Positions 3,215 to 39,792 of a stretch of 39,953 nucleotides of DNA are shown piece by piece. Numbering within the stretch: position 1 is the first letter of the stretch; the number at the start of each line of letters is the position of its first letter. A model generated the notes under the pieces. It ran no database searches. It had not been told where the DNA came from and saw nothing but the letters and a program-made list of their open reading frames with translations. The translations under genes were made by a program, and so were the position numbers. Source of the DNA: a virus; IMG/VR virus record IMGVR_UViG_3300050516_000005. The stretch is one strand, 5' to 3'.

Positions 3215-3431
3215 TGTAGCTGTACGAACTAGGGACGTTGAGGTGCCGTATCGGGTGTATGTGCCTTTGGACGCCAGGCTGACCTCGGACGTGGATTACT
3301 CGGTGCTAACGCCGGGACCGGTAAAGAACCGGCAACTGGCCGATAAGCTCGACCAGTGCCAGGTGGTTGTTAAGCAGCAGGCGGGGCAGCTTAGGGAGAT
3401 TCGGGCTTTGCAGCCAGCCGGGCAGAATTAA
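3141..3431 (+). CDS. o-spanin (Rz1-like outer-membrane lipoprotein), overlapped architecture
   Basis: Lipoprotein signal MFRINRLAIGLTASFLLPWLTAC with lipobox LTAC; starts inside the i-spanin gene (+1 frame) and extends beyond it. Confidence 0.75.
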   Translation: MFRINRLAIGLTASFLLPWLTACGDVAVRTRDVEVPYRVYVPLDARLTSDVDYSVLTPGPVKNRQLADKLDQCQVVVKQQAGQLREIRALQPAGQN

Positions 3432-4246: not shown

Positions 4247-5033
4247 ATTTAGTAGCCCACTTTGGCCTGCTGTATTGAGTCGCCTTAGCTCTAGGCTTAG
4301 GCCATTCGTTGTTCTTTAGACATTCGGCATAGATCTCGTATGCCTTTCTGGATGCTTTCTCAGCATCATCCAACGCCTCATCGTCGGGGTAAAATATCTC
4401 ACACACATACGGCGCCTCCTTCTCAATGGCGATGAACGCCATTTTTTTCATCGGCTTACCGGTCACCAGAGATTTCACGAACGGGTAGTGGTACACCGCC
4501 GTGTTGTAACCATAGTCCTCTGCATGAGCTTCCCACTTCGCCAGGGACGCGACTGACTTCAGATCGAAGTCGTATTCAGGCACCGGCGAGTCGTCAATGT
4601 CGAACCTGGCCTTGACACGGAAGCCTAGACCGGTATCGGCGAAGTACGACACCTCTGGATTGAACTTACGAAGGATGCCACGGATCGATGGGTCTGAATG
4701 TGCCGCATCTCGCATGCGACGGGCCACGTCCGCCTGTGACGGTTTGATGGGAATCCGTCCATTACCGTACTCGATCAGCGCATCCCATGCCTTCGTACCA
4801 CGCCGGATATCGTCGCTGGTGGCGATGACGAATGTTTCATCGAACCTATCAGGCTCAAGAATGGCCTTGTGGATGATCGATCCGTCTTCGGTGGACCTTG
4901 TGTTGACCGATTCGCCGTACATGAAGTGTGCGGGGGATTTCAGCAGTTTTCTCAGCGACGAATTCCCCAGCGCCTGGTCAGCGTGGTAGTCCTGTTCGGA
5001 TAGGTTGGGGTGGCGGCCTAGGAGGTCGGTCAT
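4239..5033 (-). CDS. PD-(D/E)XK exonuclease (exonuclease VIII / DUF3799-like), partner of RecT
   Basis: N-terminal LSEQDYHADQALGNSSLRKLLKSPAHFMY and later FDIDD...DFDLKSV resemble the PDDEXK exonuclease fold used with RecT; ATG 5033 chosen because it forms an ATGA overlap with the upstream 45-aa ORF (track start 5075 is TTG). Confidence 0.7.
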   Translation of the reverse strand: MTDLLGRHPNLSEQDYHADQALGNSSLRKLLKSPAHFMYGESVNTRSTEDGSIIHKAILEPDRFDETFVIATSDDIRRGTKAWDALIEYGNGRIPIKPSQADVARRMRDAAHSDPSIRGILRKFNPEVSYFADTGLGFRVKARFDIDDSPVPEYDFDLKSVASLAKWEAHAEDYGYNTAVYHYPFVKSLVTGKPMKKMAFIAIEKEAPYVCEIFYPDDEALDDAEKASRKAYEIYAECLKNNEWPKPRAKATQYSRPKWATKYE

Positions 5034-5167
5034 TTTGGCAGGTTGATCTTGTCGATGAGACGGTTGCCAAACCAAAGCTGTAGAACGTGCTCTTCTTCGT
5101 CCTCGTCAAATCCAAGGTCGAACTGCAAGTTCTTAGCCAAAATATCTACCAGTTCATCAGTGCTCAT
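5030..5167 (-). CDS. Small acidic hypothetical protein (45 aa, below the ORF-track cutoff)
   Basis: Hand translation MSTDELVDILAKNLQFDLGFDEDEEEHVLQLWFGNRLIDKINLPK; ATGA overlaps at both ends fill the gap exactly. Confidence 0.5.
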   Translation of the reverse strand: MSTDELVDILAKNLQFDLGFDEDEEEHVLQLWFGNRLIDKINLPK

Positions 5168-5940: not shown

Positions 5941-6118
5941 CTTGCACCTTCATAGCCCTGCGAACAGCTTTCCTCTCAAGATCGTTATCGCATAGAGACA
6001 TAGGATCTATCCGTGTTCGCTTAATAAGGTTTATGAGAGTAAGCCGCTGGTCTTCAAGATCATTGATCCAGTCCTGAAGCATGGCGACTTCACCAAAATC
6101 GTCTTCGTAGTCGATCAT
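5930..6118 (-). CDS. Hypothetical small acidic protein (62 aa)
   Basis: ORF in the chain with short overlaps on both sides. Confidence 0.55.
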   Translation of the reverse strand: MIDYEDDFGEVAMLQDWINDLEDQRLTLINLIKRTRIDPMSLCDNDLERKAVRRAMKVQDDR

Positions 6119-6447
6119 TCGATCACCTCAACCAGTTTGACCCGACGGGCGCCTTGACGTGCCGCATTGATGGCTGCTTCTTCCGATTCGTGACATACCA
6201 AATAGTCGCCCGCTTCTTCAGGATATTCATTTATCCAGAACTCGCGAGGACCTGGTTTTACTCGATAATCGTTTTCCTCAAAGTTCCAAACCGGCTCACC
6301 GTGTTTATGCCAATCAGTCCATTCGGCGTCCTTCCTATGCCTAAACTGGATCTTTGCCCCATTTAGGTATGCATTGATGACTAGACCTGCATCCCAGGTC
6401 TTGTGCTTGTTGACGTACTTAGCGCGATCCGCTGGGTTGCTAAACAT
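6115..6447 (-). CDS. Hypothetical protein (110 aa)
   Basis: Start moved to ATG 6447, preceded by GGAGG (ccttGGAGGttatagatATG) and overlapping the upstream stop by 8 nt; the 154-aa track ORF would overlap the upstream gene by 140 nt. Confidence 0.6.
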   Translation of the reverse strand: MFSNPADRAKYVNKHKTWDAGLVINAYLNGAKIQFRHRKDAEWTDWHKHGEPVWNFEENDYRVKPGPREFWINEYPEEAGDYLVCHESEEAAINAARQGARRVKLVEVIE

Positions 6448-6757
6448 ATCTATAACCTCCAAGGATTTCCAAAATTTTATTGCCACACTCAGCCTCGGCG
6501 TTGATGGTGGCACTAAACACGGGGTTTTCGTGGCAAGAGCTATCCCACGGCAAGCAAAGATCAGATGCAAGACGCTCAAATTTGTCTAGTACTTCTTCAA
6601 GCGCCTCGTAGGTTACCCAGCGTCCTTCGTCGTCTGGTTCCATCTTGACTCCTGTATATTCTCCTGTAGAGCGATTTTCCTGCATCTCAGGCTCAAATCT
6701 TTCTACCTGATAAAGCAATGGCTTCTGTTTGTAAAAACGGTTGTATTTCTTATCCAT
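6440..6757 (-). CDS. Hypothetical protein (105 aa)
   Basis: ORF in the chain; no motif recognised. Confidence 0.55.
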   Translation of the reverse strand: MDKKYNRFYKQKPLLYQVERFEPEMQENRSTGEYTGVKMEPDDEGRWVTYEALEEVLDKFERLASDLCLPWDSSCHENPVFSATINAEAECGNKILEILGGYRYV

Positions 6758-25933: not shown

Positions 25934-26875
25934 ATGGCCGACGAACAGAATAGTATCCAAGTCGAAAGTTCCTCCGATACGTTGGGTGAGGCTCCGGTAA
26001 AGAGCACGCCCGTCGCATCGGAACAACCCACGGCGGGCAAGCCGGTTGATCCTTCCCAAGGGTCAGAAGAAGTAAGCGATGACGAGCACGGCGACGAAGC
26101 CGGTGATGAAGTAGGGGGCGAACAGCAGCCCGGCGAACCTGGCAAGGCGAAAACGCCGCGAGGGGTTCAGAAGAAGCTGGATAAGCTGACAGCGCGTTCG
26201 AAGACGGCTGAGCAGGAGAGGGATTACTGGCGTGCTGAGGCGCTTAAGGCGCAACAGGCCAGTAAGAGCGGTCCCGAGGCACCATCCAAGCCTTCCAGTG
26301 ACACCAAGCCGACCCTTGAGCAGTTCGATTACGATCAAGAGGCTTATTTGGCTGCTGCCACGGCGTACAACGTCGCGCAGGAGCTTAAGAAGTTTCGCGA
26401 GAATGACGAAAAGCAGAAAGAGCAGCTAACCGTCGCGGAAAAGACGAAGGCATGGAAGGAAAAGGCCGACGCTTTTGCTGAAGATCATCCCGATTTTCAG
26501 GAAGTGGCGTTGAATCCTTCGCTTCCGGTCACTGAGGTAATGGCAGAGGTCATTCGCGACTCCGAAGTGGGCCACGAGCTTCTGTATTTCCTTGGAAAGA
26601 ACCCGGAAGAAGCTGCGCGAATCGCACAGATGAAGCCGCATGCCGTAGGTGTCGCCCTTGGGCGCATTGAGGCTGGCCTTATCAAGCCCTCCGAAGTCCA
26701 GTTCACCGATACCGTCGAGCGTGAGCAGCCTGAGAAAAAAGTCACCCAGGCGCCACCTCCGATCAAGACGTTGAATCCATCGGCACCGGTCAAGAGAAAT
26801 CTTGCCGATATGACCATGGAGGATTACGCAGCGGAGAGGCAGCGAACCCGCCGTAAGTCAAACGGCTTCCTCTGA
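25934..26875 (+). CDS. Scaffolding protein (candidate; TTG at 25928 is an alternative start)
   Basis: Acidic and Lys/Glu/Ala-rich, predicted helical; located between portal and coat as in P22. Confidence 0.65.
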   Translation: MADEQNSIQVESSSDTLGEAPVKSTPVASEQPTAGKPVDPSQGSEEVSDDEHGDEAGDEVGGEQQPGEPGKAKTPRGVQKKLDKLTARSKTAEQERDYWRAEALKAQQASKSGPEAPSKPSSDTKPTLEQFDYDQEAYLAAATAYNVAQELKKFRENDEKQKEQLTVAEKTKAWKEKADAFAEDHPDFQEVALNPSLPVTEVMAEVIRDSEVGHELLYFLGKNPEEAARIAQMKPHAVGVALGRIEAGLIKPSEVQFTDTVEREQPEKKVTQAPPPIKTLNPSAPVKRNLADMTMEDYAAERQRTRRKSNGFL

Positions 26876-26893
26876 TTTTAAAGGACCAACCTC

Positions 26894-28081
26894 ATGGCAA
26901 ATAACACTGCCGTTATCCAGATGGTGACCAAAGAGTCCCTGATGGTTCTCGCCGAAAAGCTCGGCTTCCTGAAGCGCATCAACCGCCAGTATGACTCGTC
27001 GTTCGCGAAGAATGGCGCGAAGATTGGCGATACACTGAATATTCGTGTGCCCGGTCACGGCATCGTCCGTAATGGTCGCGTCATGAACCTTCAGGATCTC
27101 AACGACAAGACCGTCCCGCTTCAGATCAACAACCAGCTTGGCGTTGATCTTGGCATGACCTCCGCCGACTACGCGCTCTCGATTGACGAGATTCGCGACC
27201 GTTACATCGAGCCGCGCATGACCGACTTGGCCGCAGCCATCGAAGGTTCGGTCATGGCTAACGTGATCCCGGGTATTCCGGGTGTCGTGGGCGATGGCGG
27301 CGCGCTGGATGACTATGCCACGGTGCTCCAAGCGACGGAGCGTCTCAACAACAACCTGGCCCCCATCAGCCCGCGTACGTTCATGACCACCAACTCCGCG
27401 CAGCGTCAGGCGGCGGATGCGTTCAAGACGTACTTCAACAGCCAGACTCAGATCGCCAATCAGTACGAAGATGGCGTGATGGGTCGCATGGGTGGTTTCG
27501 ACTGGTATTCGTCCTCGCTGATGCCGACGCATACGCGTGGTACCGCGAACGGTTCTTATCTGGTGAATGGTGCGGGCCAGACCGGATCGTCGCTCATTGT
27601 GGATACGGGTACTGGTACGCTTACGGTGGGTGATGTCATCACCATTGCCGGCGTATTCGACGTGCAGTCGCAGACCAAGGCTCCGCTCGGTTATCTGAAG
27701 CAGTTCACCGTGACGGCAGCGTTTTCCGGTGGCGGTGGTACGGTGTCGATCAGCCCGGCTATCGTGACCACTGGTGAGTACCAGAACGTCTCGGCGGCTC
27801 CGGCAGACAATGCGCAGGTTTCGGTCTTCGGCACCTCGGGTCAGACCTGGGGCGAGAACGTCGCGTTCGCGCGTGACGCGTTCGTGTTTGCGACCGCCGA
27901 CCTTCCGCTCCCGCCGAAGAAGGATGCCGCCCGTGCCAGCTTCCAGGGCATTTCTCTGCGTACCATCAACGACTTCGACACGGTGAACGACATGTTCATT
28001 ACCCGCGTCGATGTGATCTTCGGCTCGGCGGTGCTCCGTCCGGAACTGGCGATCCGCGTACCGAACAACCCGACCCTGTAA
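26894..28081 (+). CDS. Major capsid (coat) protein, P22 coat-family-like
   Basis: Synteny after the scaffold gene; 395 aa; N-terminus MANNTAVIQMVTKESLMVLAEKLGFLKRINRQYDSSFAKNGAKIGDTLNIRVP typical of P22-type coat family members; strong AAGGA SD. Confidence 0.8.
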   Translation: MANNTAVIQMVTKESLMVLAEKLGFLKRINRQYDSSFAKNGAKIGDTLNIRVPGHGIVRNGRVMNLQDLNDKTVPLQINNQLGVDLGMTSADYALSIDEIRDRYIEPRMTDLAAAIEGSVMANVIPGIPGVVGDGGALDDYATVLQATERLNNNLAPISPRTFMTTNSAQRQAADAFKTYFNSQTQIANQYEDGVMGRMGGFDWYSSSLMPTHTRGTANGSYLVNGAGQTGSSLIVDTGTGTLTVGDVITIAGVFDVQSQTKAPLGYLKQFTVTAAFSGGGGTVSISPAIVTTGEYQNVSAAPADNAQVSVFGTSGQTWGENVAFARDAFVFATADLPLPPKKDAARASFQGISLRTINDFDTVNDMFITRVDVIFGSAVLRPELAIRVPNNPTL

Positions 28082-28091
28082 GGAGATAGAC

Positions 28092-28292
28092 ATGGCTATC
28101 ACTCACGATCTCACGTTCCACACCGCCCCTGGTACCACCGATGGTGCCGTCATGGGTCGGGACACCACCTCCAAGGATGCGTTCTTCGGTGGCGTTCCGG
28201 CTATTCAGCCGACCCTGTCGCTTGGTTCGGCGACCACGACTCAGATCGTCCAGGCTCTCGCCTCGCTGAATCTGGTCAAGACCACGGCGTAA
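28092..28292 (+). CDS. Small head-associated hypothetical protein (66 aa)
   Basis: AAGGAGATAGAC ATG directly after the coat gene. Confidence 0.55.
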   Translation: MAITHDLTFHTAPGTTDGAVMGRDTTSKDAFFGGVPAIQPTLSLGSATTTQIVQALASLNLVKTTA

Positions 28293-28361
28293 TCACTGCA
28301 TGGATACGGCGGGTGTTCCAGGATTTTACAGGGCGCCCGCCCTATCTACCGGAGATAGAAC

Positions 28362-28730
28362 ATGACCACTGCAAAGAAAAAGGCTGACGAGAAGCACGCA
28401 CGTTACCTCGTCAACCCGGATACCAACCACGTCGAACTCGTGCACGCCGATGACGTGGAAGATCGTCAGGGTAAGGGCTGGAAGGACCCGGAAGGCAAGA
28501 TGGCGAATGGTGCCGACTGGAACTCGGAAGAGCTTCAGGAGCAGGCGAATGCCGCAGCCGATCAGGCGAAGGTAGCCGCCGATGCCAAGGCTGAAAAGGA
28601 TGCCAAGCAGGCCGAAGAGGCTGAAAAGGCACGTGCCGAGGCGGAGAAGAACGCCCCGCAGGCCCAGCCGAAGGCCGATATGCGCGTTGAGGTCGTCCAG
28701 CACGCCGCTGAGCCGAAATCCAAGAAGTAA
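28362..28730 (+). CDS. Lys/Ala/Glu-rich hypothetical protein (122 aa)
   Basis: GGAGATAGAAC ATG; low-complexity AKVAADAKAEKDAKQAEEAEKARAEAEK segment; followed by a terminator. Confidence 0.55.
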   Translation: MTTAKKKADEKHARYLVNPDTNHVELVHADDVEDRQGKGWKDPEGKMANGADWNSEELQEQANAAADQAKVAADAKAEKDAKQAEEAEKARAEAEKNAPQAQPKADMRVEVVQHAAEPKSKK

Positions 28731-28740
28731 GGTAAAATGG

Positions 28741-28768
28741 AACCGGGTCGCAATGGCCCGGTTTCTTT
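28741..28768 (+). terminator. Intrinsic terminator AACCGGG-tcgcaatgg-CCCGGTT followed by TCTTT
   Basis: Read directly, 11 nt after the stop of 28362..28730; the usual position for attenuation after head genes. Confidence 0.55.
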
Positions 28769-28782
28769 ATGTGGGGAGTGTT

Positions 28783-29205
28783 ATGACGACGGTTTCAAAA
28801 ATCGTGACGCGGGCACTCCGCAAGATCGGGGTTATCGACGCTGGCGAGTCCGCGACGGCCGTGGATTTCGAGACGGCCTTGGAAGAACTTAACTCGATGA
28901 TGATCGAGTGGGAATCCGAAGGCACCGCCACAGGTTGGACTGACGTCGAAAACCCATCTGATCCCATCCCTGTGCCGCGCGAAGACGAATCGGCTATCGT
29001 GTATAACCTGGCTGTTAGGTTGGCGCCTGAGTGGGATATGGAAGCGCCTGGCACGGTTGTATTGATGGCGTCTCAGTTGCGGCAGAACCTGGCGGCACGT
29101 CGTCTCACGGAAATGCCGTTGTCGGCGGCGAATTACACGATTGCGCCGTCGAATGGATGGTACGGATACAACGTTTATTATGACGGTTACGGGTTCCGTC
29201 GATGA
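28783..29205 (+). CDS. Head-completion / tail-adaptor protein, P22 gp4-like
   Basis: Recalled P22 gp4 matches: IVTRALRKIGV vs LVRAALRKLGV; ELNSMMIEW vs DLEAMMAEW; YNLAVRLAPEW vs HNLACRIAPDY. ATG 28783 after GGGGAG; the Arg-rich N-terminal extension of the track ORF is rejected. Confidence 0.8.
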   Translation: MTTVSKIVTRALRKIGVIDAGESATAVDFETALEELNSMMIEWESEGTATGWTDVENPSDPIPVPREDESAIVYNLAVRLAPEWDMEAPGTVVLMASQLRQNLAARRLTEMPLSAANYTIAPSNGWYGYNVYYDGYGFRR

Positions 29206-30602
29206 GCCTTCCGCTCGCCCCTCTGGACATCTTCGGCGGATCGTTCACCGACGAGACGAAGGCATTCGACCTTCAGGACTGCGTCAACTTCCTTCCCGAG
29301 CCTGCGGAAGACCCCAAAGCGCGCGCTAAGGGTGTCCTGCGTGGATGCCCCGGACTCAGGCTGTTCAAGGCGCTGGGTGGCTCATTCGGTAGCCGTGGCT
29401 GGCATAACTGCGAAGGCACGTTGTTCGTCGTCAACGGCACGACGCTCTACGAGATCCAGCCTGATTCCAGTGCTGTTTCACGTGGAACTGTTCCCGGTTC
29501 TGGCCCGGTTGATATGGAGCACAACCAGATTGCAGGAGGCAACGAGGTCGTGATTTTCACCGGGTCCGATGGATTTGTGTGGAATACCTACGCCAAGACG
29601 TTTACGCAGATCACCGATGATGCGTTTCCTGGGGCGTTCTCGGCGGGTTACATCGATAGTTACATCTGCGCCGTCGAGCCGCTTGGGCGGTATTGGTTTA
29701 CCTCTGACTTGGCGAACGCGACATCGTACGATGACACCAATCGGTACTCAGCGGAATCCGCGCCTGATGGGATCTTAGGGTTGCTTGTATCGCACTCTGA
29801 GGTCTGGGTATTCGGCCAGCGCACGATTGAGCATTTTCAGGACACCGGTTCGAACGACATAGCGTTCCAGCCAAATAAAGGAACTGTCATCGAGAAGGGC
29901 GTGGCGGGTCGTTACTGTTTCGCGCGTATGGATAACACGGTTTACTGGCTGGGTAACGATGGGATCGTGTATTCGGCAGGATCGGGGTATGCACCCACGC
30001 GGGTATCCACGCATGCCATCGAGCAGGCGATTGACGGTCTCAACCTGGCAAGCGCCAAGGCCTTCGTGTGGATTGACCGGGGGCACTCGGTGTTTTACCT
30101 GGACTTTCCCGACGGCCATACCTGGGGATTCGATGTTTCATCGGGTCTTTGGCACCGCCGTGAGTCGCATGGGCTGACCCGGTGGCGCGTGAATGACGCT
30201 ATTTACTGGAACGGCGGATGGTATGGCACGGATTTTGCCAACGGAAATATCTATCACCTTGATTGGGACGAATATACCGAGAATGGTGCGCCGCTCGTGG
30301 CGATGCGCCGGACTTCTTATCTGTCGTCCAACCAGAACCGGGTAAAAAATGCCGCACTGGAAATCGTCATGGACACGGGCAGGGGGCCGGTCGATGGGGA
30401 TTCGTGCGTGAATTTGCGGTATTCTGATGACAACGGATATACGTGGTCGAATTACCGGCAGATCTCGCTGGAAGATATCAATAATCGTGGGTATAGGGTG
30501 AGATTTACCCGTCTTGGATCGTTTTACCAGAGGGTTTACGAGATTATGGTGTCGTCAAATGTCAAACGAGACATTATCAGTGCATCCGGTGCGTTCGCAT
30601 GA
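29202..30602 (+). CDS. Tail hub / packaged-DNA stabilisation protein, P22 gp10-like
   Basis: YSAESAPDGILGLL...FGQRTIEHFQDTGS...VIEKGVAGRYCF vs P22 gp10 YRAESQPDGIIGIG...FGSSTIEYFSLTGA...MVQKGIAGTYCK; similar size (466 vs about 472 aa). Confidence 0.85.
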   Translation: MSLPLAPLDIFGGSFTDETKAFDLQDCVNFLPEPAEDPKARAKGVLRGCPGLRLFKALGGSFGSRGWHNCEGTLFVVNGTTLYEIQPDSSAVSRGTVPGSGPVDMEHNQIAGGNEVVIFTGSDGFVWNTYAKTFTQITDDAFPGAFSAGYIDSYICAVEPLGRYWFTSDLANATSYDDTNRYSAESAPDGILGLLVSHSEVWVFGQRTIEHFQDTGSNDIAFQPNKGTVIEKGVAGRYCFARMDNTVYWLGNDGIVYSAGSGYAPTRVSTHAIEQAIDGLNLASAKAFVWIDRGHSVFYLDFPDGHTWGFDVSSGLWHRRESHGLTRWRVNDAIYWNGGWYGTDFANGNIYHLDWDEYTENGAPLVAMRRTSYLSSNQNRVKNAALEIVMDTGRGPVDGDSCVNLRYSDDNGYTWSNYRQISLEDINNRGYRVRFTRLGSFYQRVYEIMVSSNVKRDIISASGAFA

Positions 30603-31177
30603 ACCATTTTCAGGAGATCGCCGGAAACATCGATATCATGCCGCTGCTCCTGGCGGTGAAGAGGCGTCCAGAGTTGTGGGAGAAGGACACGTTTCTCCGG
30701 GATTACAACCAGGGCGTCCCGTTCGGCTGCATGAAGACGATTTTTCTGCGTTGGCCGGTCATCGAAGACGGTTCAACGATGTCGGAGGAGGATGTTAAGG
30801 CATATCTGACTTCGGATCGTCAGCACGAGAGCGTTGACCATCCTGAGTACAAGATTCTGACCGAGGCACGGCCTCTGGTGATGAATCTGATGCATTACGT
30901 CGGCGGCGAGCGACTTGGTCGGGTGATGATCAATAAGCTGGAACCGGGTGGTTCGATTACGCCCCATGCGGATACTCCGGCACATGCGGATTATTACTCG
31001 CGGTTCCATTTGGTCTTGCAGTCCACTCCCGGTGTTGTGTTCCGTGCGGGGGATGAAGAAACCTACATGAAGACGGGTTTTTGGTACTGGTTCAACAACA
31101 AGGAAGTCCACACGGTGATCAACAACTCCGCTGATGACCGTATTCATATGATTGTTGATATTCGGACTAGTAGGTGA
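30599..31177 (+). CDS. Aspartyl/asparaginyl beta-hydroxylase-family 2OG/Fe(II) oxygenase-like cupin
   Basis: LEPGGSITPHADTPAH ... RFHLVLQS ... GFWYWFNNKEVHTVINNSADDRIHMIVD fits the Asp_Arg_Hydrox pattern (L.PG..I.PH.D ... R.HL.L ... H.v.N.s..R.h...D) with an HxD...H triad; ATGA overlap with the gp10-like stop. Confidence 0.7.
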   Translation: MNHFQEIAGNIDIMPLLLAVKRRPELWEKDTFLRDYNQGVPFGCMKTIFLRWPVIEDGSTMSEEDVKAYLTSDRQHESVDHPEYKILTEARPLVMNLMHYVGGERLGRVMINKLEPGGSITPHADTPAHADYYSRFHLVLQSTPGVVFRAGDEETYMKTGFWYWFNNKEVHTVINNSADDRIHMIVDIRTSR

Positions 31178-31181
31178 GGCT

Positions 31182-31385
31182 ATGACCGTATATACGAGGC
31201 CAGCTCCCGGAGAATGGGTTCAACCTGTAAGAACGGGTTACAAGCTGGCATGTTGTGACTGTGGATTGGTACACACCTTGGACTTTCGTGTTTACAAAGG
31301 AAGGGTGCAATTCAGGGCCGACAGGAACAACCGTTCGACCGCGATGATGAGGCGTCATAACCACAAAGATGGGGTGAGGAAATGA
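31182..31385 (+). CDS. Small Cys-containing basic protein (67 aa)
   Basis: ATG after GGTGAGG; GYKLACCDCGLVHTLDFRVYKGRVQFRADRNNRS. Confidence 0.55.
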   Translation: MTVYTRPAPGEWVQPVRTGYKLACCDCGLVHTLDFRVYKGRVQFRADRNNRSTAMMRRHNHKDGVRK

Positions 31386-31450
31386 GCTACTACGACCTTG
31401 AAGACGGCGAAGAATTCTTCGAAGCCCTGATGCGTTCGGTGCTGGAATGA
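31382..31450 (+). CDS. 22-aa acidic micro-ORF (MSYYDLEDGEEFFEALMRSVLE)
   Basis: Fills the 61-nt gap exactly, with ATGA overlaps at both ends (31382 and 31447). Confidence 0.35.
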   Translation: MSYYDLEDGEEFFEALMRSVLE

Positions 31451-31902
31451 TCACGTTTGCGGTCGAGCCATGGTCCGTTTACGCGCCTGACGCGGAAGAA
31501 CTGTGGCCGCGTCACTGGGAAGAACTGGCGAAACATCGCGATAAAATTCCCCTGGATGTGGACTATGACCGATATGAGATGGCTGATGCGTCCGGCGAAT
31601 TGTTCATCGCTGTGGGTCGTGACAAGGGCCAGGTTGCGGCCTACTGGATCGGTTTTATCAAGGGTCATCTCCACTACAGCGGTACACTGCACGCCTTCAA
31701 CGACATCTATTACGTCGCGCCCGAGCATCGAAAGTCGGGTGTCGGAACGGAACTGTTCGTGTATGTCGAGCGCGAATTGAAGCGTCGAGGGGTAAAGAAA
31801 ATCATCAATGCGACGAAGATCTCACACGATCACTCGGCGCTGTTTGAGTCGCAGGGATTTCATGCGACAGAACGTGTTTTCACTAAGTACATAGGAGATT
31901 AA
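31447..31902 (+). CDS. GNAT-family N-acetyltransferase
   Basis: IYYVAPEHRKSGVGTELFVYVERELKRRGVKKI is a typical acetyl-CoA binding motif A (R/Q-x-x-G-x-G/A); overall GNAT size and layout. Confidence 0.75.
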   Translation: MITFAVEPWSVYAPDAEELWPRHWEELAKHRDKIPLDVDYDRYEMADASGELFIAVGRDKGQVAAYWIGFIKGHLHYSGTLHAFNDIYYVAPEHRKSGVGTELFVYVERELKRRGVKKIINATKISHDHSALFESQGFHATERVFTKYIGD

Positions 31903-31905
31903 GTC

Positions 31906-32517
31906 ATGGCAATCGCTATTGCTGGGTCGGCGGCAGTTGCGGGTGCCGCGATTAGCTCCAACGCTTCGTCCAACGCCGCCAAATCGTCGTCCAACGCCGC
32001 CAAGAATGCCTCGGCTACGCAGCTTCAGATGTACAACCAGACGCGCGAGGATCTACAGCCTTATGCTCAGCAGGGCGTTAACGCTACGAATCAGATCAAT
32101 GCGCTTAACTCGGGCGACTATACGTCATTCACCGCATCGCCTGATTACCAGTTCACATTGAACCAGGGCATCGCGGGGCTGGACAAGTCGGCGGCGGCTC
32201 GTGGTGTGCTGAATTCAACTGGATATGGTAAGGATTTGCTGAATTACGCCTCTGGTGTCGCCTCGCAGCAGTACAACAATTATTACAACAAGATCGCAGG
32301 ACAGCAGTCGCTGGGGCAGTCGGCAGCGGCGGGTACGGCAGCGGCGGGGCAGAATTACGCCAACGCGTCAGCGGCCAATACGCTGGCAGCTGGGCAGGCA
32401 AATGCCGCAAATGCCATTAATCAGGGTAATATTGCGAACAACACGATCAACCAGTTTGCTTCAGCCTACGGCCAATATGGTACGGGTTCGGCCTACGGCA
32501 AATTCTCGGCGGCATAA
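31906..32517 (+). CDS. Internal virion / ejection protein (gp7-slot), Ala/Asn/Gln/Ser-rich
   Basis: Synteny and size relative to the P22 ejection proteins; low-complexity composition. Confidence 0.55.
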   Translation: MAIAIAGSAAVAGAAISSNASSNAAKSSSNAAKNASATQLQMYNQTREDLQPYAQQGVNATNQINALNSGDYTSFTASPDYQFTLNQGIAGLDKSAAARGVLNSTGYGKDLLNYASGVASQQYNNYYNKIAGQQSLGQSAAAGTAAAGQNYANASAANTLAAGQANAANAINQGNIANNTINQFASAYGQYGTGSAYGKFSAA

Positions 32518-32526
32518 GGAACGGAT

Positions 32527-34077
32527 ATGGCACTCCCCGACATCGTACAGGCCAACCCGTTCGCCGCCATCAATCAGGGCGTGCAGGCTAAGAATCAGCT
32601 AGCCGAGCAGGCTATGCGAATTCAGACCCTTACGCAGAACCAGAACGACCGTAACGCGTTCGCCAAGGCCATTGGCATGGCGGCTACGGGCGACCGTACA
32701 GGTGGTCAGAACTTCCTGGCGACCCAGGCGCCGGGAGCGCTGCCCGATTACCAGGGGTACGTCTCACAGCTTGACGCAGGCAAGGCCGCGCAGCTGCAAC
32801 AGTCAAACCAGGCAATATTCCGTAAGGTGCAGGAGATTTCCCAGCTTCCCCCCGAACAGCGTCAGCCGGCGTATCAGGCGGCGAAGGCTAAGCTTGCAGC
32901 GGACGGCGGTGATGTGTCGTGGCTACCTGATGACGTGGATTCGGGGCTGAAGGCGGCTTACACGCATGTGGCGTCTTTTGATCAGGTGTTGAAGGCGTCG
33001 GGGCTGGGTCCGGCCGAGGGTGTTGTGGTCGGACAGGGTGGCGTGCTCACCAACAAGAATACCGGTCAGGTGATGTTTGCGAATCCTTCTGCACCAAAGC
33101 CCGATCAGATCGTCTCTGTTGGCGTCCCAGGTGGCACTCAGCAGTTCTACAACACGCCTTCGGGACTGAAGCCGATTGCCGCGCCTAGTGGTCAGGCGGG
33201 TGGATCGGGCGATCCGGTGAACCCGCTCATCCAGCAGGCTAACCAGATGGTGCAACAGGGTACGCCGCCTGATCAGGTCGAGTCGTGGTTACAGCAGCAG
33301 ATTCAAGCTGGTGGTGGTCAGGTTGGCGGATCTCAGGGTGCCTCTGGTGGCCTCGGGTTTACCCCTTCGAAATCCGCGACGACCGATTCGTTCCGCCCCG
33401 CGACGCAGCAGGAAATCCAGGCGGCTGGCTTGCCCGCTGGATCGTCTGCTCAGGTGAACACGAATACGGGCAAGCTGGATGTGTTGTCGCGTGGGTCTCA
33501 GCTGTCGCCAGATAAGCAGGCTGACGTGGCGGCTAAGCGGCAGAAGGCGGAGGATGCTAAGCGTGAGGCTGTGGCTTCGGCGCAGGATTCGATTGACCGT
33601 ATCGACCAGCTTCTGAATTCTCCGGGATTTAGTCAGTTGGGTACGGCCATGGGCGACCTTGCGGTGAAAACGCCGCTCATCCGAACCGATGCCAAGAACG
33701 CCCAGGCTGCATTGGAGACAATCAGCAGCCAGTCATTGCTTAATACGCTCGGTTCGCTGAAGTCCCTTTCGCCAACTGGTGCATCAGGCTTCGGCGCACT
33801 GTCTGATTCCGAAGGTCGTATTTTGCGTACCGCTGCCGCCAACCTTGAAACGGGCGGTCAGGATAACGCTTCGCTGCGAGCGAACATCGAGGATCTTCGT
33901 CGCAAGCTGGTACGCACTCGCGACCGGATCAATGGCACGCAGGTCCGCCTACCTGAAGAGGAGTCAGGATCTGCCGCGCAGCCTTCCAGTGGCTCACCTG
34001 CCGTGGGCCACGTCGAAGGCGGCTACCGCTTCCTTGGCGGAGATCCGGGTAACCATCAGAACTGGGAGAAGCTCTAA
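32527..34077 (+). CDS. Internal virion / ejection protein (gp20-slot)
   Basis: Synteny and size (516 aa); Gln/Ala/Gly-rich; GALSDSEGRILR motif. Confidence 0.55.
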   Translation: MALPDIVQANPFAAINQGVQAKNQLAEQAMRIQTLTQNQNDRNAFAKAIGMAATGDRTGGQNFLATQAPGALPDYQGYVSQLDAGKAAQLQQSNQAIFRKVQEISQLPPEQRQPAYQAAKAKLAADGGDVSWLPDDVDSGLKAAYTHVASFDQVLKASGLGPAEGVVVGQGGVLTNKNTGQVMFANPSAPKPDQIVSVGVPGGTQQFYNTPSGLKPIAAPSGQAGGSGDPVNPLIQQANQMVQQGTPPDQVESWLQQQIQAGGGQVGGSQGASGGLGFTPSKSATTDSFRPATQQEIQAAGLPAGSSAQVNTNTGKLDVLSRGSQLSPDKQADVAAKRQKAEDAKREAVASAQDSIDRIDQLLNSPGFSQLGTAMGDLAVKTPLIRTDAKNAQAALETISSQSLLNTLGSLKSLSPTGASGFGALSDSEGRILRTAAANLETGGQDNASLRANIEDLRRKLVRTRDRINGTQVRLPEEESGSAAQPSSGSPAVGHVEGGYRFLGGDPGNHQNWEKL

Positions 34078-36296
34078 TGGCCGATCAGGCGCCTTGGGAG
34101 AAGTATTCTCAGGCACCGGCCAGTCAGGCCAGCGCCGAGCCCGTCCCATGGGAAAAATATGGTGGATCAGCCACGCCTGCCGCCGCATCCTCTGCACCGA
34201 ATGCTAACCATGCTGAGGACGTTCCTTACGCATCCGGCGCCAGCCCGTACACAGCTGCGGATCTCAACCCGGAGGCCATGGCGCCAGAACGGCCTAAGTC
34301 CACGGGCGAGGTTGCCTCGGATGTGGCCGGAGAGGTAGGCCGGGGTATCGCGCTGGCTGGGAGGTCTTTGGTCAAGGGTGCGGCGGCGATTCCGGATATG
34401 GTGATCGCGCCTGCCGCTGGTCTGGTCAATAAGGGACTGGACGCGCTTGGCGTTGACCCGAAGTATCACCAGGCGACGCTCAATCAGGTTCTAGATCAGG
34501 GCATTCAAGAGGCCGGTCTGCCCGTACCTGAATCCACGGCAGAGCGGTACATCGACCGCGCGGGGCAGGCTGTAGCTGGTGTAGCGGGAGGCGCCGGTAC
34601 CGTGGCTTCAGCGCTGCGTAGCACAGCATCTCCGGTGGCCGCTGGCGTGGCCGAACAGATCGCGGCGAATGTGCCTCAGCAGGCGCTAGCGGCGACTACG
34701 GGCGCTTCGGCTGGGCAGGCGGCACAGGATGCGGGATTCGGTCCCGTGGGCGAGCTTGCGGCCTCTGTGGGAGGCGCGCTGGCCCCTTCCGCAGCAGTGG
34801 CAGCTACGAGCCTCGCCAACCCGGCCAACATCGTCCAGCGTGCGGCTAACTACGCCTCCACCCGTCCGTCGGCGGCTGGTTTCACTCAGGAAGGCCGCGA
34901 TCTCGCGGCGCGAACTGGTATCGACTTCACGCCGGGTCAGCTGACAGGTACGAAATTTCAGACGGGTCTTGAAAATACGGCACGCCAGTCGTTTTTTAGC
35001 GCTGACAAGGCATTTCAGGGCGATAAGAAAACGGCCGATCAGGCGATTGCCTACCTTGGACGCCTCATGGATAACCTCAACCCTGGTGAGGTTTCGGCTC
35101 AGGGTGTTGGCGACAAGATCCAGAACACGGTCCGTAACGTCGTAAAGAGCCTGTCGGACGCCCGTGAGGCATCGGGTAAGCAGCTATACGGCGATGTCGA
35201 GAAGATCGTGGGTGACTCGCCTATTGTCCAGTACAACAACACGAAGGGCGTCTTGCAAGACATCTTGCAGCAGTATTCCGATGTGCCGGGTGCAGCGGCG
35301 AAGACGGTCAGGTCTCAGGTTCAGGCCCTTCTGGACGACGTTAACGCCAAGCCTGCGTTCTCTCTGGATGCGGCGCGTCGGGCGCGCACGTCCTACGGGC
35401 AGGCGGCGCGTCGCTCTGGCGACATCTTCGAAAACGTCAATCCGCAGGTGCAACAGACCATCGCCAAGCGCCTGTACGGTGCGATGAGCCAGGATATCGA
35501 TGATACGGCTTCGGCTATCAATCACGTCGAGATTTCACAGAACCCGTTGCAGACCCAGACGGGTGCAATCACGGTAAACAGTGGCGGTAACGTCGGGGAT
35601 ATGCTTCGTGCGGCTAATGCGAACTATAAGCGCTATTCTCAGCTTATCGATGGGGTGGAAAATTCCCCTCTTTCGAAGCTTCTTGGGAATGACGTGGTTG
35701 TCGATGGGAATACGATTTCCAATCTGGCCCCGGAGGAGGTGGTGAAGCGCATGCAGGGCTTGCAGCCTAGCCAGCTTAAGACGGTGGTTGGCGCGCTACA
35801 GAAGAACAACCCGGAAGCTTTGCAGGAGTACAAGCGCCTGTTGGTGCAGAACGCCGCCGATACGGCTATGTCGTTGCCGACAAGCGCGGGCGCTAACCAC
35901 GTACCGCTGAATGCTGGTGGGTTCATCCGCGCACTGGGTGGTAACAAGCCTGATCAGGTGGCAAAACTCCGCACGCTGTTTTCAGGTCAGGAAATGGATC
36001 AGATTGACGATGCCTTCGCGGCCATGCGTCGTCTGGGGGATAAGTTCGGCGCGAATTACTCGGGCACTGCGGCGCAGGCTGAAGTCATGAATGCGGTGAA
36101 GAACTTTTCGGTTAGGGGCATTGCTTCGACACTTGGTTCTGTTGCCGGACTTCGCCGGGTGGCCGGAGCCATCGCCAATTCTGACGGTCGCCAGGCCATT
36201 GTCGCGCTATCCAAGGCCAAGCCGGGTAGCGTCGAAGAACGCGCCGCTGCAAAAATTCTCAACCAGATTGCCACACAGCAAGGGGATTCGCCGTGA
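34077..36296 (+). CDS. Internal virion / ejection protein (gp16-slot), largest virion ORF
   Basis: Synteny and size (739 aa); Ala/Gly-rich hydrophobic segments near residues 90-260; TAATG coupling. Confidence 0.55.
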   Translation: MADQAPWEKYSQAPASQASAEPVPWEKYGGSATPAAASSAPNANHAEDVPYASGASPYTAADLNPEAMAPERPKSTGEVASDVAGEVGRGIALAGRSLVKGAAAIPDMVIAPAAGLVNKGLDALGVDPKYHQATLNQVLDQGIQEAGLPVPESTAERYIDRAGQAVAGVAGGAGTVASALRSTASPVAAGVAEQIAANVPQQALAATTGASAGQAAQDAGFGPVGELAASVGGALAPSAAVAATSLANPANIVQRAANYASTRPSAAGFTQEGRDLAARTGIDFTPGQLTGTKFQTGLENTARQSFFSADKAFQGDKKTADQAIAYLGRLMDNLNPGEVSAQGVGDKIQNTVRNVVKSLSDAREASGKQLYGDVEKIVGDSPIVQYNNTKGVLQDILQQYSDVPGAAAKTVRSQVQALLDDVNAKPAFSLDAARRARTSYGQAARRSGDIFENVNPQVQQTIAKRLYGAMSQDIDDTASAINHVEISQNPLQTQTGAITVNSGGNVGDMLRAANANYKRYSQLIDGVENSPLSKLLGNDVVVDGNTISNLAPEEVVKRMQGLQPSQLKTVVGALQKNNPEALQEYKRLLVQNAADTAMSLPTSAGANHVPLNAGGFIRALGGNKPDQVAKLRTLFSGQEMDQIDDAFAAMRRLGDKFGANYSGTAAQAEVMNAVKNFSVRGIASTLGSVAGLRRVAGAIANSDGRQAIVALSKAKPGSVEERAAAKILNQIATQQGDSP

Positions 36297-37099
36297 GCTT
36301 CCGATTTCTAGACCAGGCGCCACAGTTCTTTACCCGGGATGGTCGCGTCCTGGCGGGCGGCTCGCTGACGTTTTACACCACCGGCACGTCGATCAAGCTC
36401 AACACGTACACCAGCAAGGATCTATCGTCCCCAAACACCAACCCGGTATCTCTGGATGCCGATGGCAGGGCATCGTCGGATATCTGGATGGATGGCGAGT
36501 ATCGGGTGGTACTGGCCGACTCGGAAGGCGCTATCCAGTGGACTCGCGATAATGTTGAGGGACCTGCGGATCTGCCGACGTTCTCATCGGGGCAGGCCGG
36601 GTATTTCCTATCGACAAATGGGGAAGATCTTCTGTGGGTGCCGATTCGCCAGCCTCCCGATCCTGCCGGGCAGGTAGGTAAAATCCTTGGGTCGGATGGC
36701 GCCAATATCATCTGGCAGAATCCTCCGGCAACGCCGCCGCCTGCGACATCCGACGTGGCTGTTGGTACCACAAATGTCTCGATCAGCGATGGTACGCGGA
36801 AGATCCTCATCCAGACTGGCACCGCGACGGCTCCCAATGTGGGTGGGCGTGATACATCGGTTTCGGTGAATTTCCCCACGGCATATTCTGGAAATCCTCT
36901 GTATGTTGGTGTAACGCCTCGCTACAGCGGCACCGTGTCGGCCTTGGGTAACGCTCCGATTCCTCACCTTAGCTCTTTCAGCAATACGTCGTTTACAGTA
37001 GTGATGTCCGCTGGTGAGCGCGACGATACGGGATCGGGATTCAATTTTAACGCCGCCATTCCATTTGATTGGGTGGCCTTCGGTCTGGTTGCCGTATGA
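36293..37099 (+). CDS. Tail fibre / tailspike protein with conserved N-terminal fibre domain
   Basis: GGSLTFYTTGTSIKLNTYTSKDLSSPNTNPVSLDADGRASSDIWMDGEYRVVLADSEGAIQWTRDNV matches the widespread fibre N-terminal pattern (G.l.fY.aGT...k.tY......ntNPv.LD..Gr ... Yrv.l.d). Confidence 0.7.
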   Translation: MSFRFLDQAPQFFTRDGRVLAGGSLTFYTTGTSIKLNTYTSKDLSSPNTNPVSLDADGRASSDIWMDGEYRVVLADSEGAIQWTRDNVEGPADLPTFSSGQAGYFLSTNGEDLLWVPIRQPPDPAGQVGKILGSDGANIIWQNPPATPPPATSDVAVGTTNVSISDGTRKILIQTGTATAPNVGGRDTSVSVNFPTAYSGNPLYVGVTPRYSGTVSALGNAPIPHLSSFSNTSFTVVMSAGERDDTGSGFNFNAAIPFDWVAFGLVAV

Positions 37100-37680
37100 C
37101 AAATAGGGTATTCCTTCCTCAGTCGCAAACTACGCTGGTCAATCAGCGTGGTGTGACCATGCAATCGTTCTATCGGTGGTTCCAGTATATCGATGGCGCG
37201 GTGAGCACGAATGGGGATAATGGGAATACCTATGCGGACCAGATCAAAGCGATTGCGCTGGCATTAGGTTCGCCAGATGGCTCGGTGTCTGGTATCCCTC
37301 CTCAAGGCAACCAGGCCGTTATCAACGGCGCAGGGTCTATCGAGGTCAGTGGCACACTTGAGTCGGGAGTCGTCAATTTATCCCTGTTCGGTGACGCCGC
37401 CTATCCGCAGAACGATTCGTACTATGGGACGGATGCGACAGGTAAGCGAGGTTTTTACACCCTCGCGAGTGAGGTCGTCACATCTATGGATGGATTCAAG
37501 GGCGATGTGGTTATCACCAATGACGACCCATCCATTGTCGTACGTAATTCGCTAAATTCGATCTATCTATCGGTTGGAATCATCGATTGTGGGATAATTA
37601 CCGTGCCTTCCATGGGACGAATCACCTCCACAGGTGACCGCCGCGTAACTTCTACCGCAGACCACCGGATTACCGCGTAA
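37096..37680 (+). CDS. Tail-fibre-associated protein (194 aa)
   Basis: ATGA coupling; C-terminal degenerate heptad RITSTGD-RRVTSTAD-HRITA. Confidence 0.55.
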   Translation: MTNRVFLPQSQTTLVNQRGVTMQSFYRWFQYIDGAVSTNGDNGNTYADQIKAIALALGSPDGSVSGIPPQGNQAVINGAGSIEVSGTLESGVVNLSLFGDAAYPQNDSYYGTDATGKRGFYTLASEVVTSMDGFKGDVVITNDDPSIVVRNSLNSIYLSVGIIDCGIITVPSMGRITSTGDRRVTSTADHRITA

Positions 37681-38306
37681 TGGCAGACGTCACCATCAAT
37701 GGGCTAAGCGCCGGAATGATTTCAGGCACAGACGAGATCGAATACCAGATCACGGGCGGTGGCGCGTCTAGGAAAACGACAGCGGGGGCGATTGCCGCGC
37801 TAGCCGGTGCTCTGACAAATCCCATGACGTCTGTGGGAGACATCATACGTGGCGGAACATCTGGGGCACCTACCCGACTTGCTATCGGCACTACGGGTCA
37901 GGTGCTTACCGTGGCGGCGGGGATTCCTTCGTGGGCAACGCCTACCACAGGCGTGACGCTGGCAAATACCTCGCCATGGACTAAGAATCAGTACGTAACC
38001 CCCGTGTCGGTTGCCTCGGCGACGGGTACGTATACGCCTGACGCATCAGCATCCAACAACTTCCAGCTGACGCTTACGGGAAATCTGACGCTAGCAAATC
38101 CGGCCAACCTTCAGACTGGTATGGTGCTTAATTTCTGCCTGGATGAAGATGCCACGGGTGGACGAACCATCACGCTTGGGTCGCTTTACAAATGGCCTGG
38201 CGGCACTGTGCCTACTTGGGTCACGACCGCATCAGCTAAGAATTTCTTCAGCGCTTACTACGATGGCGCTATTTTGCGGTGCTCTGGCGGCGTGGGGTAT
38301 GCCTGA
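37680..38306 (+). CDS. Tail fibre protein (208 aa)
   Basis: GDIIRGGTSGAPTRLAIGTTGQVLTVAAGIPSWATP is a common fibre motif (G.sG.p..L..G..GqvL....g.P.W). Confidence 0.65.
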   Translation: MADVTINGLSAGMISGTDEIEYQITGGGASRKTTAGAIAALAGALTNPMTSVGDIIRGGTSGAPTRLAIGTTGQVLTVAAGIPSWATPTTGVTLANTSPWTKNQYVTPVSVASATGTYTPDASASNNFQLTLTGNLTLANPANLQTGMVLNFCLDEDATGGRTITLGSLYKWPGGTVPTWVTTASAKNFFSAYYDGAILRCSGGVGYA

Positions 38307-39118
38307 TGTTCACCACAGGGGTGGCCTTTTTTGGTGCATCTAGCACATTATGGAAGCCGAGTAATCTTCCTAATCTGTACGCCTGGTATAAGGCAGATAG
38401 TCCGCTCAATACGTTGAGTGGATCGAATTACACTACGTGGAAAGACTTATCCGGAAATTCTCATGATGCGAGCATCAGCGGCACTGTGTCGATGGTTTCT
38501 GGAACGATTGGCGGCCGCTCGGCGGCTTCTTTTACGCAAAACACTGACAACGTAGCTGTCATAGCAAGCTCTGTAGACATTCTTAGGAATAAGAACGGAT
38601 TCCATTTCGGTTCCATGCTTCAGCAGACTTACACTGGTTCAAGCCAGGGAACTTTGTTCCAGTCAGATACGAATAGCTCCGGCTTCGCTAGGGTATATAT
38701 CAGATACCCAAACACATCAGCGCGAACGCCCGCTATTTTAGGTCGCCGACTAGATGCGGATAGCTTGTCCACTGTCCAATCACCCACGACGGTTACAACC
38801 GTTTCATCTCTTCTTGTGAACATCAATTACAGCACGGCTACCGCCGACTTGCGAGCTAATGGTACCCAGTTAATTAGCGATGTATTTACTTCATCGGGGA
38901 GCACGTCAAACACGTCAAGCGCATTTAACGCGGCGGTAGGCAACCAGGCGGGTACGTCTAACAGCTTTGGTGGCTATATTGGCGAGGTAGTCATCTGCGA
39001 TGCGGGCTTATCCCTTGCGGATGAGCAGCGTCTTGAAGGCTACCTTAACTGGCAATGGGGACAACAGTCCTCTCTTCCATCGGGTCACCCCTATAAATCA
39101 GCACCCCCCATGATATGA
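38306..39118 (+). CDS. LamG/ConA-like lectin domain tail protein (270 aa), low-GC gene
   Basis: FGGYIGEVVICDAGLSLADEQRLEGYLNWQWG is a LamG-type ending; TGATG start. Confidence 0.6.
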   Translation: MFTTGVAFFGASSTLWKPSNLPNLYAWYKADSPLNTLSGSNYTTWKDLSGNSHDASISGTVSMVSGTIGGRSAASFTQNTDNVAVIASSVDILRNKNGFHFGSMLQQTYTGSSQGTLFQSDTNSSGFARVYIRYPNTSARTPAILGRRLDADSLSTVQSPTTVTTVSSLLVNINYSTATADLRANGTQLISDVFTSSGSTSNTSSAFNAAVGNQAGTSNSFGGYIGEVVICDAGLSLADEQRLEGYLNWQWGQQSSLPSGHPYKSAPPMI

Positions 39119-39792
39119 CGACTCAGCGCATAAAAAACCGATACGCTGATACGCCGTCAGCCCGACTGTCGGATATCCCTCTTGACCGTGAACTGGTCAT
39201 CCAGGGGTCTGATAACACGCTGTGGCGAGGTGATGGCGTCACGCCGGGCGGTATCGCTATCACGGTAGCAGGAGCAGCCACAGGGACGGTTACTTCCGTC
39301 AACTTCTCGGCACCTTCGATATTCACGCTGGCAGGGAATCCGATCACCACAGCGGGTACCATCACATTGGGGTTGGCGAACGAGCCCGCCATGACGGTAT
39401 TCGCTGGGCCGATATCCGGCACGGCGTCTGCGCCTTCGTTCCGTGCGCTGTATGACTCCGATATCGCCGTATCGATGATTACCGACCAATCGGGTGTATT
39501 GCTCACCGATCAGTCCAATGTAGCCCTTGAGTCGAACTCCTATGGATTTTCTATCTCATGGGCGACTGTCACGGGTAAGCCAACAACGCTGGCCGGATAT
39601 GGCATCACCGATGCTGTCGTTAAGATGGGTGATCTTCCTTATCATCCGCCATTTCTTACTACAAATGTACCTGCGGCGGCGGGTAATCAATACCGAACAG
39701 TGACTATTACCAATCTGGCCGAAGGCGCGCGTATTTGCTGGTCTGACGGGGTAAACTGGCGGCGACTTTCCGACAACTCTATCGCGGTGTAA
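39115..39792 (+). CDS. Tail fibre protein (225 aa)
   Basis: WRGDGVTPGG and WATVTGKPTTLAGYGITDAV motifs common in phage fibres. Confidence 0.65.
   Translation: MTTQRIKNRYADTPSARLSDIPLDRELVIQGSDNTLWRGDGVTPGGIAITVAGAATGTVTSVNFSAPSIFTLAGNPITTAGTITLGLANEPAMTVFAGPISGTASAPSFRALYDSDIAVSMITDQSGVLLTDQSNVALESNSYGFSISWATVTGKPTTLAGYGITDAVVKMGDLPYHPPFLTTNVPAAAGNQYRTVTITNLAEGARICWSDGVNWRRLSDNSIAV

Follow-up and report, generated by a model that had tools for sequence, protein, structure and literature searches.

We examined a pair of predicted enzymes encoded among the virion genes of the IMG/VR virus record IMGVR_UViG_3300050516_000005, namely a cupin of the Fe(II)/2-oxoglutarate (2OG) oxygenase type and a protein of the GNAT fold. 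The whole 39,953-nt sequence was analyzed and is referred to here as the window, and all coordinates and all genes described for the locus are on its + strand. The window was found to be a circularly permuted whole phage genome of approximately 40 kb, and because nucleotide comparison with known phages gave trivial matches only, it does not correspond to a described phage. Four open reading frames (ORFs) of 192, 67, 22, and 151 aa occupy positions 30599-31902, where the original prediction had placed them. The first (30599..31177) encodes the cupin, a soluble protein of the Asp/Asn/Pro-hydroxylase family (PF05118), and the second (31182..31385) encodes a basic protein, o67, with a CCDCGLVH motif. 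The third (31382..31450) encodes the acidic micro-protein MSYYDLEDGEEFFEALMRSVLE, which is supported by its codon conservation with respect to a related locus, L021, and the fourth (31447..31902) encodes the GNAT-fold protein. Upstream of the cupin are a gp4-like gene (PF11650) and a gp10-like gene for the tail hub or head-closure protein Hc3 (29202..30602; PF11134 Phage_stabilise, E 5.4e-12; phrog_578 'head closure Hc3', E 2.3e-119).

Three ORFs of the ejection type were found to follow the GNAT gene (31906-36296). The first of these (31906..32517) encodes a gp7-like protein rich in Asn, Gln, Ala, and Gly, the first ejection protein or internal virion protein (IVP) B, which matched phrog_598 'DNA ejection' (E 1.2e-38) and, weakly, PF25688 P22_gp7. 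A second ejection or internal virion protein of 516 aa is encoded at the gp20 position (32527..34077; phrog_25769, 8e-24; phrog_2534 'released from the phage upon host infection', 1.3e-14). The third large ORF, of 739 aa (34077..36296), is ATGA-coupled to the preceding one and was assigned to the gp16 or IVP-D place by position only; family-profile scans with Pfam, PHROG, and NCBIfam gave no match for it, and the syntenic gene of phage PfAn1 carries the annotation internal virion transglycosylase. The corresponding P22 order is 4, 10, 26, 14, 7, 20, 16, with a gene 14 product of 151 aa, and no homologue of gp26, the needle, was found among the window ORFs scanned. It had been proposed that the four ORFs stand in place of gene 14 and the ejection genes, a view that is contradicted by the three ejection-type ORFs and by the GNAT gene, which fills the gene 14 slot.

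The four ORFs are tightly packed. Stop and start codons overlap as ATGA at 30599-30602, 31382-31385, and 31447-31450, as can be read directly in the sequence and as had been stated previously. At the first of these sites the gp10-like stop overlaps the cupin start, and at the other two the 22-aa ORF overlaps the o67 stop with its own start and the GNAT start with its own stop. The 67-aa ORF starts 5 nt past the cupin stop, with the ribosome-binding site AGGTGAGG before its start. Across positions 26000-37500, no promoter-like site was found on the + strand, and the sole strong terminator-like hairpin lies upstream of the block, at 28739-28765. The four ORFs are translationally coupled, and their co-expression with the late structural genes is thus plausible, in line with what had been suggested for them. 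The hairpin has a 12 bp stem and a T-rich tail, is located between the gp4-like gene and a 122-aa ORF after the coat gene, and resembles a stem-loop annotated after the P22 coat gene. It was also noted that the gp4-like gene probably starts at an in-frame ATG near 28783, and not at 28582 or 28732.

We sought to characterize the cupin through family profiles, alignment, and structural modeling. It matched PF05118 Asp_Arg_Hydrox with an E-value of 3.6e-14 (53.3 bits; cutoff 22.6). In an alignment of 58 homologues spanning 30-92% identity, H123, D125, H171, and R181 were invariant, so the HxD...H triad reported from the sequence was confirmed, and R181 is found at +10 from the distal His, the usual 2OG-binding position. 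By these residues, the active site is intact. The AlphaFold2 (AF2) model of the cupin (pLDDT 84, pTM 0.81) predicts the double-stranded beta-helix fold of 2OG oxygenases. Using Foldseek, the model was matched to L-proline cis-4-hydroxylase 4p7w (3e-11), and a probability of 1.00 was obtained for 4p7w, 7v4f, 5apa and 6yyu (human AspH), and 1e5r (proline 3-hydroxylase), where 7v4f is the caprazamycin hydroxylase Cpz10 (PMC9814697). No hydrophobic, transmembrane, or signal segment was found in the cupin, with a maximum Kyte-Doolittle 19-residue window of 0.77.

Relatives of the cupin are numerous, with 739 in the databases, 564 loci in IMG/VR, and 116 in reference genomes. Distant cellular homologues (27-34% identity) were found in Woeseiaceae, in Pelagibius, and as tandem cupins in Planctomycetota; a GNAT gene is absent from these and they offered no usable functional hint. 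The Planctomycetota or Isosphaeraceae metagenome-assembled genomes (L148, L155, L174) encode two tandem cupin-family domains followed by a long C-terminal region. In the Pelagibius locus (L145), the cupin is fused to a region resembling an alpha/beta-hydrolase, as judged by eye only and not profile-tested.

The GNAT protein was also assigned with support from both profile and structure. It matched PF00583 (E 5e-11, 43.2 bits; cutoff 20.7) and phrog_1249 'acetyltransferase', its AF2 model reached a pLDDT of 90, and GNAT proteins were matched in BFVD, with a VpV262 N-acetyltransferase among the top viral structural matches (TM 0.88). The earlier assignment of a 2OG/Fe(II) cupin fold and a GNAT fold was therefore upheld, as both Pfam matches are above their cutoffs and the AF2 and Foldseek results agree. 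The acetyl-CoA pyrophosphate loop of the window GNAT reads R95-K-S-G98-V-G100, following the R/Q-x-x-G-x-G/A pattern. R95 is conserved in 100% of 107 GNAT homologues and G100 in 93% of them, with position 98 being variable. The GNAT protein may be catalytically active.

We then assessed how regularly the two genes occur together. Among 107 distinct phage or prophage-type cupin loci with sequence available downstream, a GNAT gene was directly downstream of the cupin in 104, mostly with a 4-nt ATGA overlap. The GNAT gene of the window ends at 31902 and the phrog_598 ejection protein gene starts at 31906, and this same order was seen in nearly all related loci. The pair adjoins the gp7-like gene both at loci with the gp10-like gene upstream and at those with it approximately 5 kb downstream. 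It was found in P22-like, SU10-like, and T7-gp14-type backgrounds, the SU10-type background being recognized by its portal, capsid, and adaptor genes. In MW202665, a cupin of 31% identity stands alone immediately before a 'DNA ejection' protein. Pairwise identities of the cupin and GNAT proteins were correlated (Spearman 0.61), as would be expected of genes inherited together.

The prophages that carry the pair are mostly from Burkholderiales, including Janthinobacterium, Massilia, Paraburkholderia, Caballeronia, Ralstonia, Achromobacter, and Hydrogenophaga, with others from Acinetobacter and Rhodanobacteraceae. Two cultured phages, Pseudomonas phage PfAn1 (Pseudomonas fluorescens) and Limnohabitans phage DC33, also possess it. 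These results demonstrate that the cupin and GNAT genes are a conserved unit of two genes that is old and shared by hundreds of phages. Several additional features were noted at these loci. In about 13 related loci (L009 9657-10004; L021 5219-5569; L001 8660-9004), the cupin is immediately preceded by a conserved ORF of about 115 aa, and in 9 loci of SU10-like prophages by a different ORF of 84 aa; neither is universal and both are absent from the window. For DC33 (L002, PQ492659.1), GenBank lists Inoviridae, yet the genome is 39 kb with a tailed-phage arrangement comprising the cupin-GNAT pair and a 567-aa ORF downstream, and its taxonomy line looks wrong.

In some phages, the two enzymes are joined in a single polypeptide. 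A profile search with the GNAT family returned 6,714 relatives at E <= 1e-3, and among the best 150 representatives, which were inspected for fusions, five proteins (P0292, P0363, P0392, P0271, and P0386) combine an N-terminal cupin with a C-terminal GNAT. Each of the five is a representative cluster at the 50% identity level, so that fusion is seen in at least five diverged lineages, and all of them keep HxD...H...R. P0292 was recovered identically from three independent samples, where it heads an operon and is followed by a gene for a phrog_598 ejection protein and by two other large ORFs; a gp10-like gene is close by. The protein encoded directly after P0386 scores above the threshold of PF24072 T7_gp14, which indicates that this fusion occupies the T7 gp13 slot. 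Taken together, the adjacency, translational coupling, co-inheritance, and repeated fusion amount to strong genomic evidence that the hydroxylase would work with the GNAT protein. It was also noted that P0275 and P0306 (277-279 aa) have a GNAT of the same type fused to another N-terminal domain of approximately 130 aa, for which neither Pfam nor PHROG gave a confident match and which may be an alternative partner.

The GNAT gene was compared to the small genes known from the slot between the tail hub and the ejection proteins. T7 gp13 and P22 gp14 are small late non-structural proteins that are required for infectious particles. In most podoviruses, the IVP operon opens with a small gene termed IVP-A (Hardies et al. 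2016, PMC4819975). An acetyltransferase-fold, non-structural IVP-A is found before IVP-B in T7, P22, epsilon15, and the RIO-1/VpV262 group; IVP-A matches acetyltransferases, and phages of the VpV262/SIO1 type carry a non-structural gene of the acetyltransferase family in the same slot (PMC4819975). The window GNAT sits where gene 14 does in P22 and, at 151 aa, has the length of gp14. Its homologues in Zobellviridae Vibrio phages and MW202796 occupy this slot with no cupin beside them.

Comparisons at the sequence level did not add support to this equivalence. The GNAT protein had no Pfam match to PF11039 (P22 gp14) or PF11090 (T7 gp13), BLASTP gave an E-value of 2.6, and hhalign with GNAT profiles of 14 and 112 sequences gave probabilities below 1%, the templates being single sequences with correspondingly low sensitivity. 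Within the phage collection, gp14 relatives share more than 90% identity with one another, and so no useful gp14 profile could be built. As sequence homology to gp14 or gp13 was not found, we consider the GNAT to be an IVP-A-type gene and the positional equivalent of P22 gp14 and T7 gp13 from its position, size, and fold and from the published account of this slot (PMC4819975).

From this examination, the ejection-protein operon of the phage begins in this region, which is not a foreign island. A mild dip in GC was noted at 30400-31300 (0.46-0.51, versus 0.55-0.62 in the flanks), where it covers the last parts of the gp10-like and cupin genes and the 67-aa gene; for the block as a whole, the dip was to 0.47-0.55. 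Recent insertion of the whole block was ruled out by the mildness of this dip and by the ancient, widespread cupin-GNAT pair. The four-gene inserted island of the original prediction was accordingly resolved by the synteny survey into two parts, with the cupin and GNAT genes as the old unit and the 67-aa gene as a separate, recent insertion.

The two small ORFs between the enzymes were found to have different histories. For the 67-aa protein, 270 small basic homologues that are 55-89% identical were retrieved, with W12, Q14, P15, Y20, and C24-H31 (CCDCGLVH) invariant, and no match to it was found in Pfam, PHROG, NCBIfam, or PADLOC. Its gene is absent from the closest relative of the window, L004, whose cupin and GNAT are 92% and 95% identical, respectively. 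Elsewhere, members of the family occur between terminase and portal or in accessory regions (loci L010-L014). Small and promiscuous among phages, the 67-aa gene was recently inserted at the cupin-GNAT junction, is unrelated to its neighbors, and lies outside the conserved unit. This junction is an insertion hotspot. In L029 (3741-4200) it holds an ORF of approximately 150 aa that resembles an HNH/AP2-type homing endonuclease by eye and was not profile-tested, and unrelated ORFs of 60-80 aa were seen at the junction in L081 (7571-7760) and L105 (6571-6805).

The 22-aa peptide is identical to that of L021 in 21 of 22 residues, with 10 synonymous codon changes and 1 non-synonymous change, at a locus where the flanking cupin and GNAT are 77% and 66% identical to those of the window. 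This pattern of substitutions marks it as a real peptide under strong purifying selection. It is present in L004, occurs as a diverged copy in L041, and is fused in frame to the GNAT N-terminus in P0242 of locus L020. As these five loci, including the window, belong to one subclade to which the peptide is confined, it is best described as a subclade-specific accessory, either a detachable N-terminal extension or a partner of the GNAT protein.

An intriguing question is what a hydroxylase and an IVP-A protein would do together at the head of an ejection-protein operon. We propose that the pair acts as a maturation unit for the ejection proteins, a reading for and against which we find the case evenly balanced. 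The hydroxylase would be the fixed partner of the IVP-A GNAT, co-transcribed, translationally coupled, and co-inherited with it, and sometimes part of the same polypeptide; the two proteins may form a complex. They would act late in infection, in the cytoplasm, on the nascent ejection proteins, these being the gp7-like protein and the two larger ones that are its presumed companions as substrate. The ejection proteins would be hydroxylated, and possibly acylated, before they are loaded into the procapsid, and the modification would enable their packaging and their later refolding into a trans-envelope channel. The more specific claim, that a dedicated unit of 2OG hydroxylase and IVP-A, complexed or fused, matures the ejection proteins covalently prior to their packaging, is advanced tentatively, and we regard it as doubtful in this full form.

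Several observations speak against such a role, and most of them favor the main rival. The gp7-like proteins of phages that have a cupin do not differ in their Asn/Gln/Ala/Gly-rich composition from those of phages that lack it. The cupin has a mean pairwise identity of 66%, versus 55% for the GNAT, and a median identity between the window and the others of 62%, versus 39.5%; it is the most conserved protein of the module, above all structural proteins. Such conservation above the fast-evolving ejection proteins would be unexpected if these were its substrate. Among the closest solved structures are enzymes that hydroxylate free amino acids or an intermediate of a nucleoside antibiotic, in addition to protein hydroxylases. 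In addition, the three exceptions among the 107 loci are Variovorax prophages (L130-L132, cupin at about 6001-6645), in which a cupin of 46% identity is downstream of DNA primase/helicase genes and the GNAT and ejection genes are absent nearby.

The main rival holds that the cupin, with or without the GNAT, is an accessory enzyme directed at the host or at a metabolite (a moron or auxiliary metabolic gene) that resides in the late operon for expression only, hydroxylating a conserved host protein or small molecule late in infection. The conservation of the cupin suggests such a conserved non-phage substrate, and the Variovorax prophages place it beside replication genes without its usual neighbors. 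Its best structural matches, the L-proline hydroxylases and Cpz10, are small-molecule enzymes, and uncharacterized Asp/Asn/Pro hydroxylases are common in unrelated phages and in giant viruses. However, the cupin and IVP-A are neighbors at 104 of the 107 loci, over different virion backgrounds, which is hard to explain by hitch-hiking, and the repeated fusion to GNAT and the lone cupin of MW202665, in the slot before the ejection protein, also argue against it. We consider this explanation rather unlikely, while noting that it is the strongest of the alternatives.

A further possibility is that the cupin, the GNAT, or both enter the virion together with the ejection proteins and, once injected, act early on host targets as effectors, which would be analogous to the enzymatic domains of other internal virion proteins. 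Their genes are at the head of the ejection-protein operon and would be co-translated with it, and according to a passage of Hardies et al. (PMC4819975), IVPs host domains destined for the cytoplasm. However, the IVP-A of T7 and the acetyltransferases of the RIO-1 group are non-structural (PMC4819975), and both window proteins are small and globular, with no helical or low-complexity region of the IVP kind. Injection of the enzymes was accordingly judged improbable.

The 22-aa peptide could instead be the substrate, in the manner of a ribosomally synthesized and post-translationally modified peptide (RiPP). The peptide (DLEDG...) would be hydroxylated at Asp by the cupin and acylated by the GNAT, and it does lie between the two enzymes, contains Asp residues suited to an enzyme of the Asp/Asn hydroxylase family, and is more strongly constrained by purifying selection than the enzymes are. 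However, a RiPP precursor is expected consistently beside its tailoring enzymes, and this peptide is found in one subclade only, with most cupin-GNAT pairs overlapping directly without it. Its in-frame fusion to the GNAT N-terminus also fits an extension of the enzyme better than a substrate. A RiPP-like system is thus very improbable.

A change of the cell envelope had been allowed by the original prediction; in the form of lipid A hydroxylation by an LpxO-like activity, for lysogenic conversion or superinfection exclusion, it was least credible of all: LpxO belongs to PF05118 and the hosts include Burkholderiales, Acinetobacter, and Pseudomonas, groups in which LpxO-type enzymes occur, but the cupin scored 17.3 bits against the NCBIfam LpxO equivalog cutoff of 500, has no transmembrane or signal segment, and is encoded in a late virion operon with no promoter-like site on its strand nearby. 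Defense and anti-defense readings were also considered and were set aside, with no PADLOC matches found.

After weighing these alternatives, we return to maturation of the ejection proteins as the preferred reading of the hydroxylase and IVP-A pair. The procapsid loading of internal virion proteins and the role of IVP-A (T7 gp13, P22 gp14) are poorly understood, and a catalytically intact hydroxylase that is next to IVP-A in almost every case, shows translational coupling with it, and has been joined to it repeatedly points to an enzymatic maturation of genome-delivery proteins. If this is true, the T7 gp13 and P22 gp14 class would supply one half, catalytic or adaptor, of a system of post-translational modification that the ejected proteins need in order to form the trans-envelope channel. 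The hypothesis is concrete and can be tested by mass spectrometry, as the pair is present in cultured phages and in prophages whose hosts can be grown, among them Janthinobacterium, Paraburkholderia, Ralstonia, Achromobacter, and Acinetobacter. It also has a consequence for annotation, since prophage GNATs and "aspartyl beta-hydroxylases" of this kind should be read as a virion module and not as resistance or metabolic genes. In the literature searched, nothing beyond Hardies et al. 2016 was found on the pairing, on PfAn1, on phage Asp/Asn hydroxylases, or on the IVP-A acetyltransferase. The pairing had not been recognized from described P22-like modules, and this still applies, as the same literature holds nothing on a cupin at this position. 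The GNAT gene is thus of a known kind, IVP-A, and its conserved 2OG hydroxylase partner, coupled and sometimes fused to it, is undescribed in that literature.

Some features of the remaining genome were also recorded. ORFs resembling tail fibers reach the right end of the window (36293-39792) and resume at its left end (9-1505), and the two tail-fiber-like ORFs at the window ends match phrog_34307. These are followed by an endolysin gene (1833-2426) and, on the minus strand, by a RecT/exonuclease pair (3428-5075). A tRNA gene was not detected in the window.

Finally, we compared the pair to known systems. A virus-encoded 2OG oxygenase of the same fold is the PBCV-1 prolyl 4-hydroxylase (5c5t), which acts on protein substrates and was a weaker structural match to the cupin; it differs in being of another subfamily, from a eukaryotic virus, and with no link to genome-delivery proteins. 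LpxO shares the Pfam family of the cupin, which falls far below the NCBIfam cutoff and is without a membrane anchor. Like the PF05118 enzymes AspH, Cpz10, 4p7w, and 1e5r, to which it is 14-18% identical, the cupin has a predicted double-stranded beta-helix, the HxD...H triad, and, for the C5 carboxylate of 2OG, an Arg at +10. Unlike AspH, it is minimal, consisting of 192 aa without tetratricopeptide repeat (TPR) or substrate-recognition domains, and it is encoded in a virion operon. Among the described IVP-A genes, none has a hydroxylase partner or fusion. The window GNAT matches canonical GNAT Pfam models and, in the comparisons made here, is without detectable sequence similarity to gp14 or gp13. 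In common with T7 gp13, P22 gp14, and the VpV262/SIO1 acetyltransferase, however, it is the product of a small (138-160 aa), late, acetyltransferase-fold gene situated between the tail-hub gene and IVP-B.

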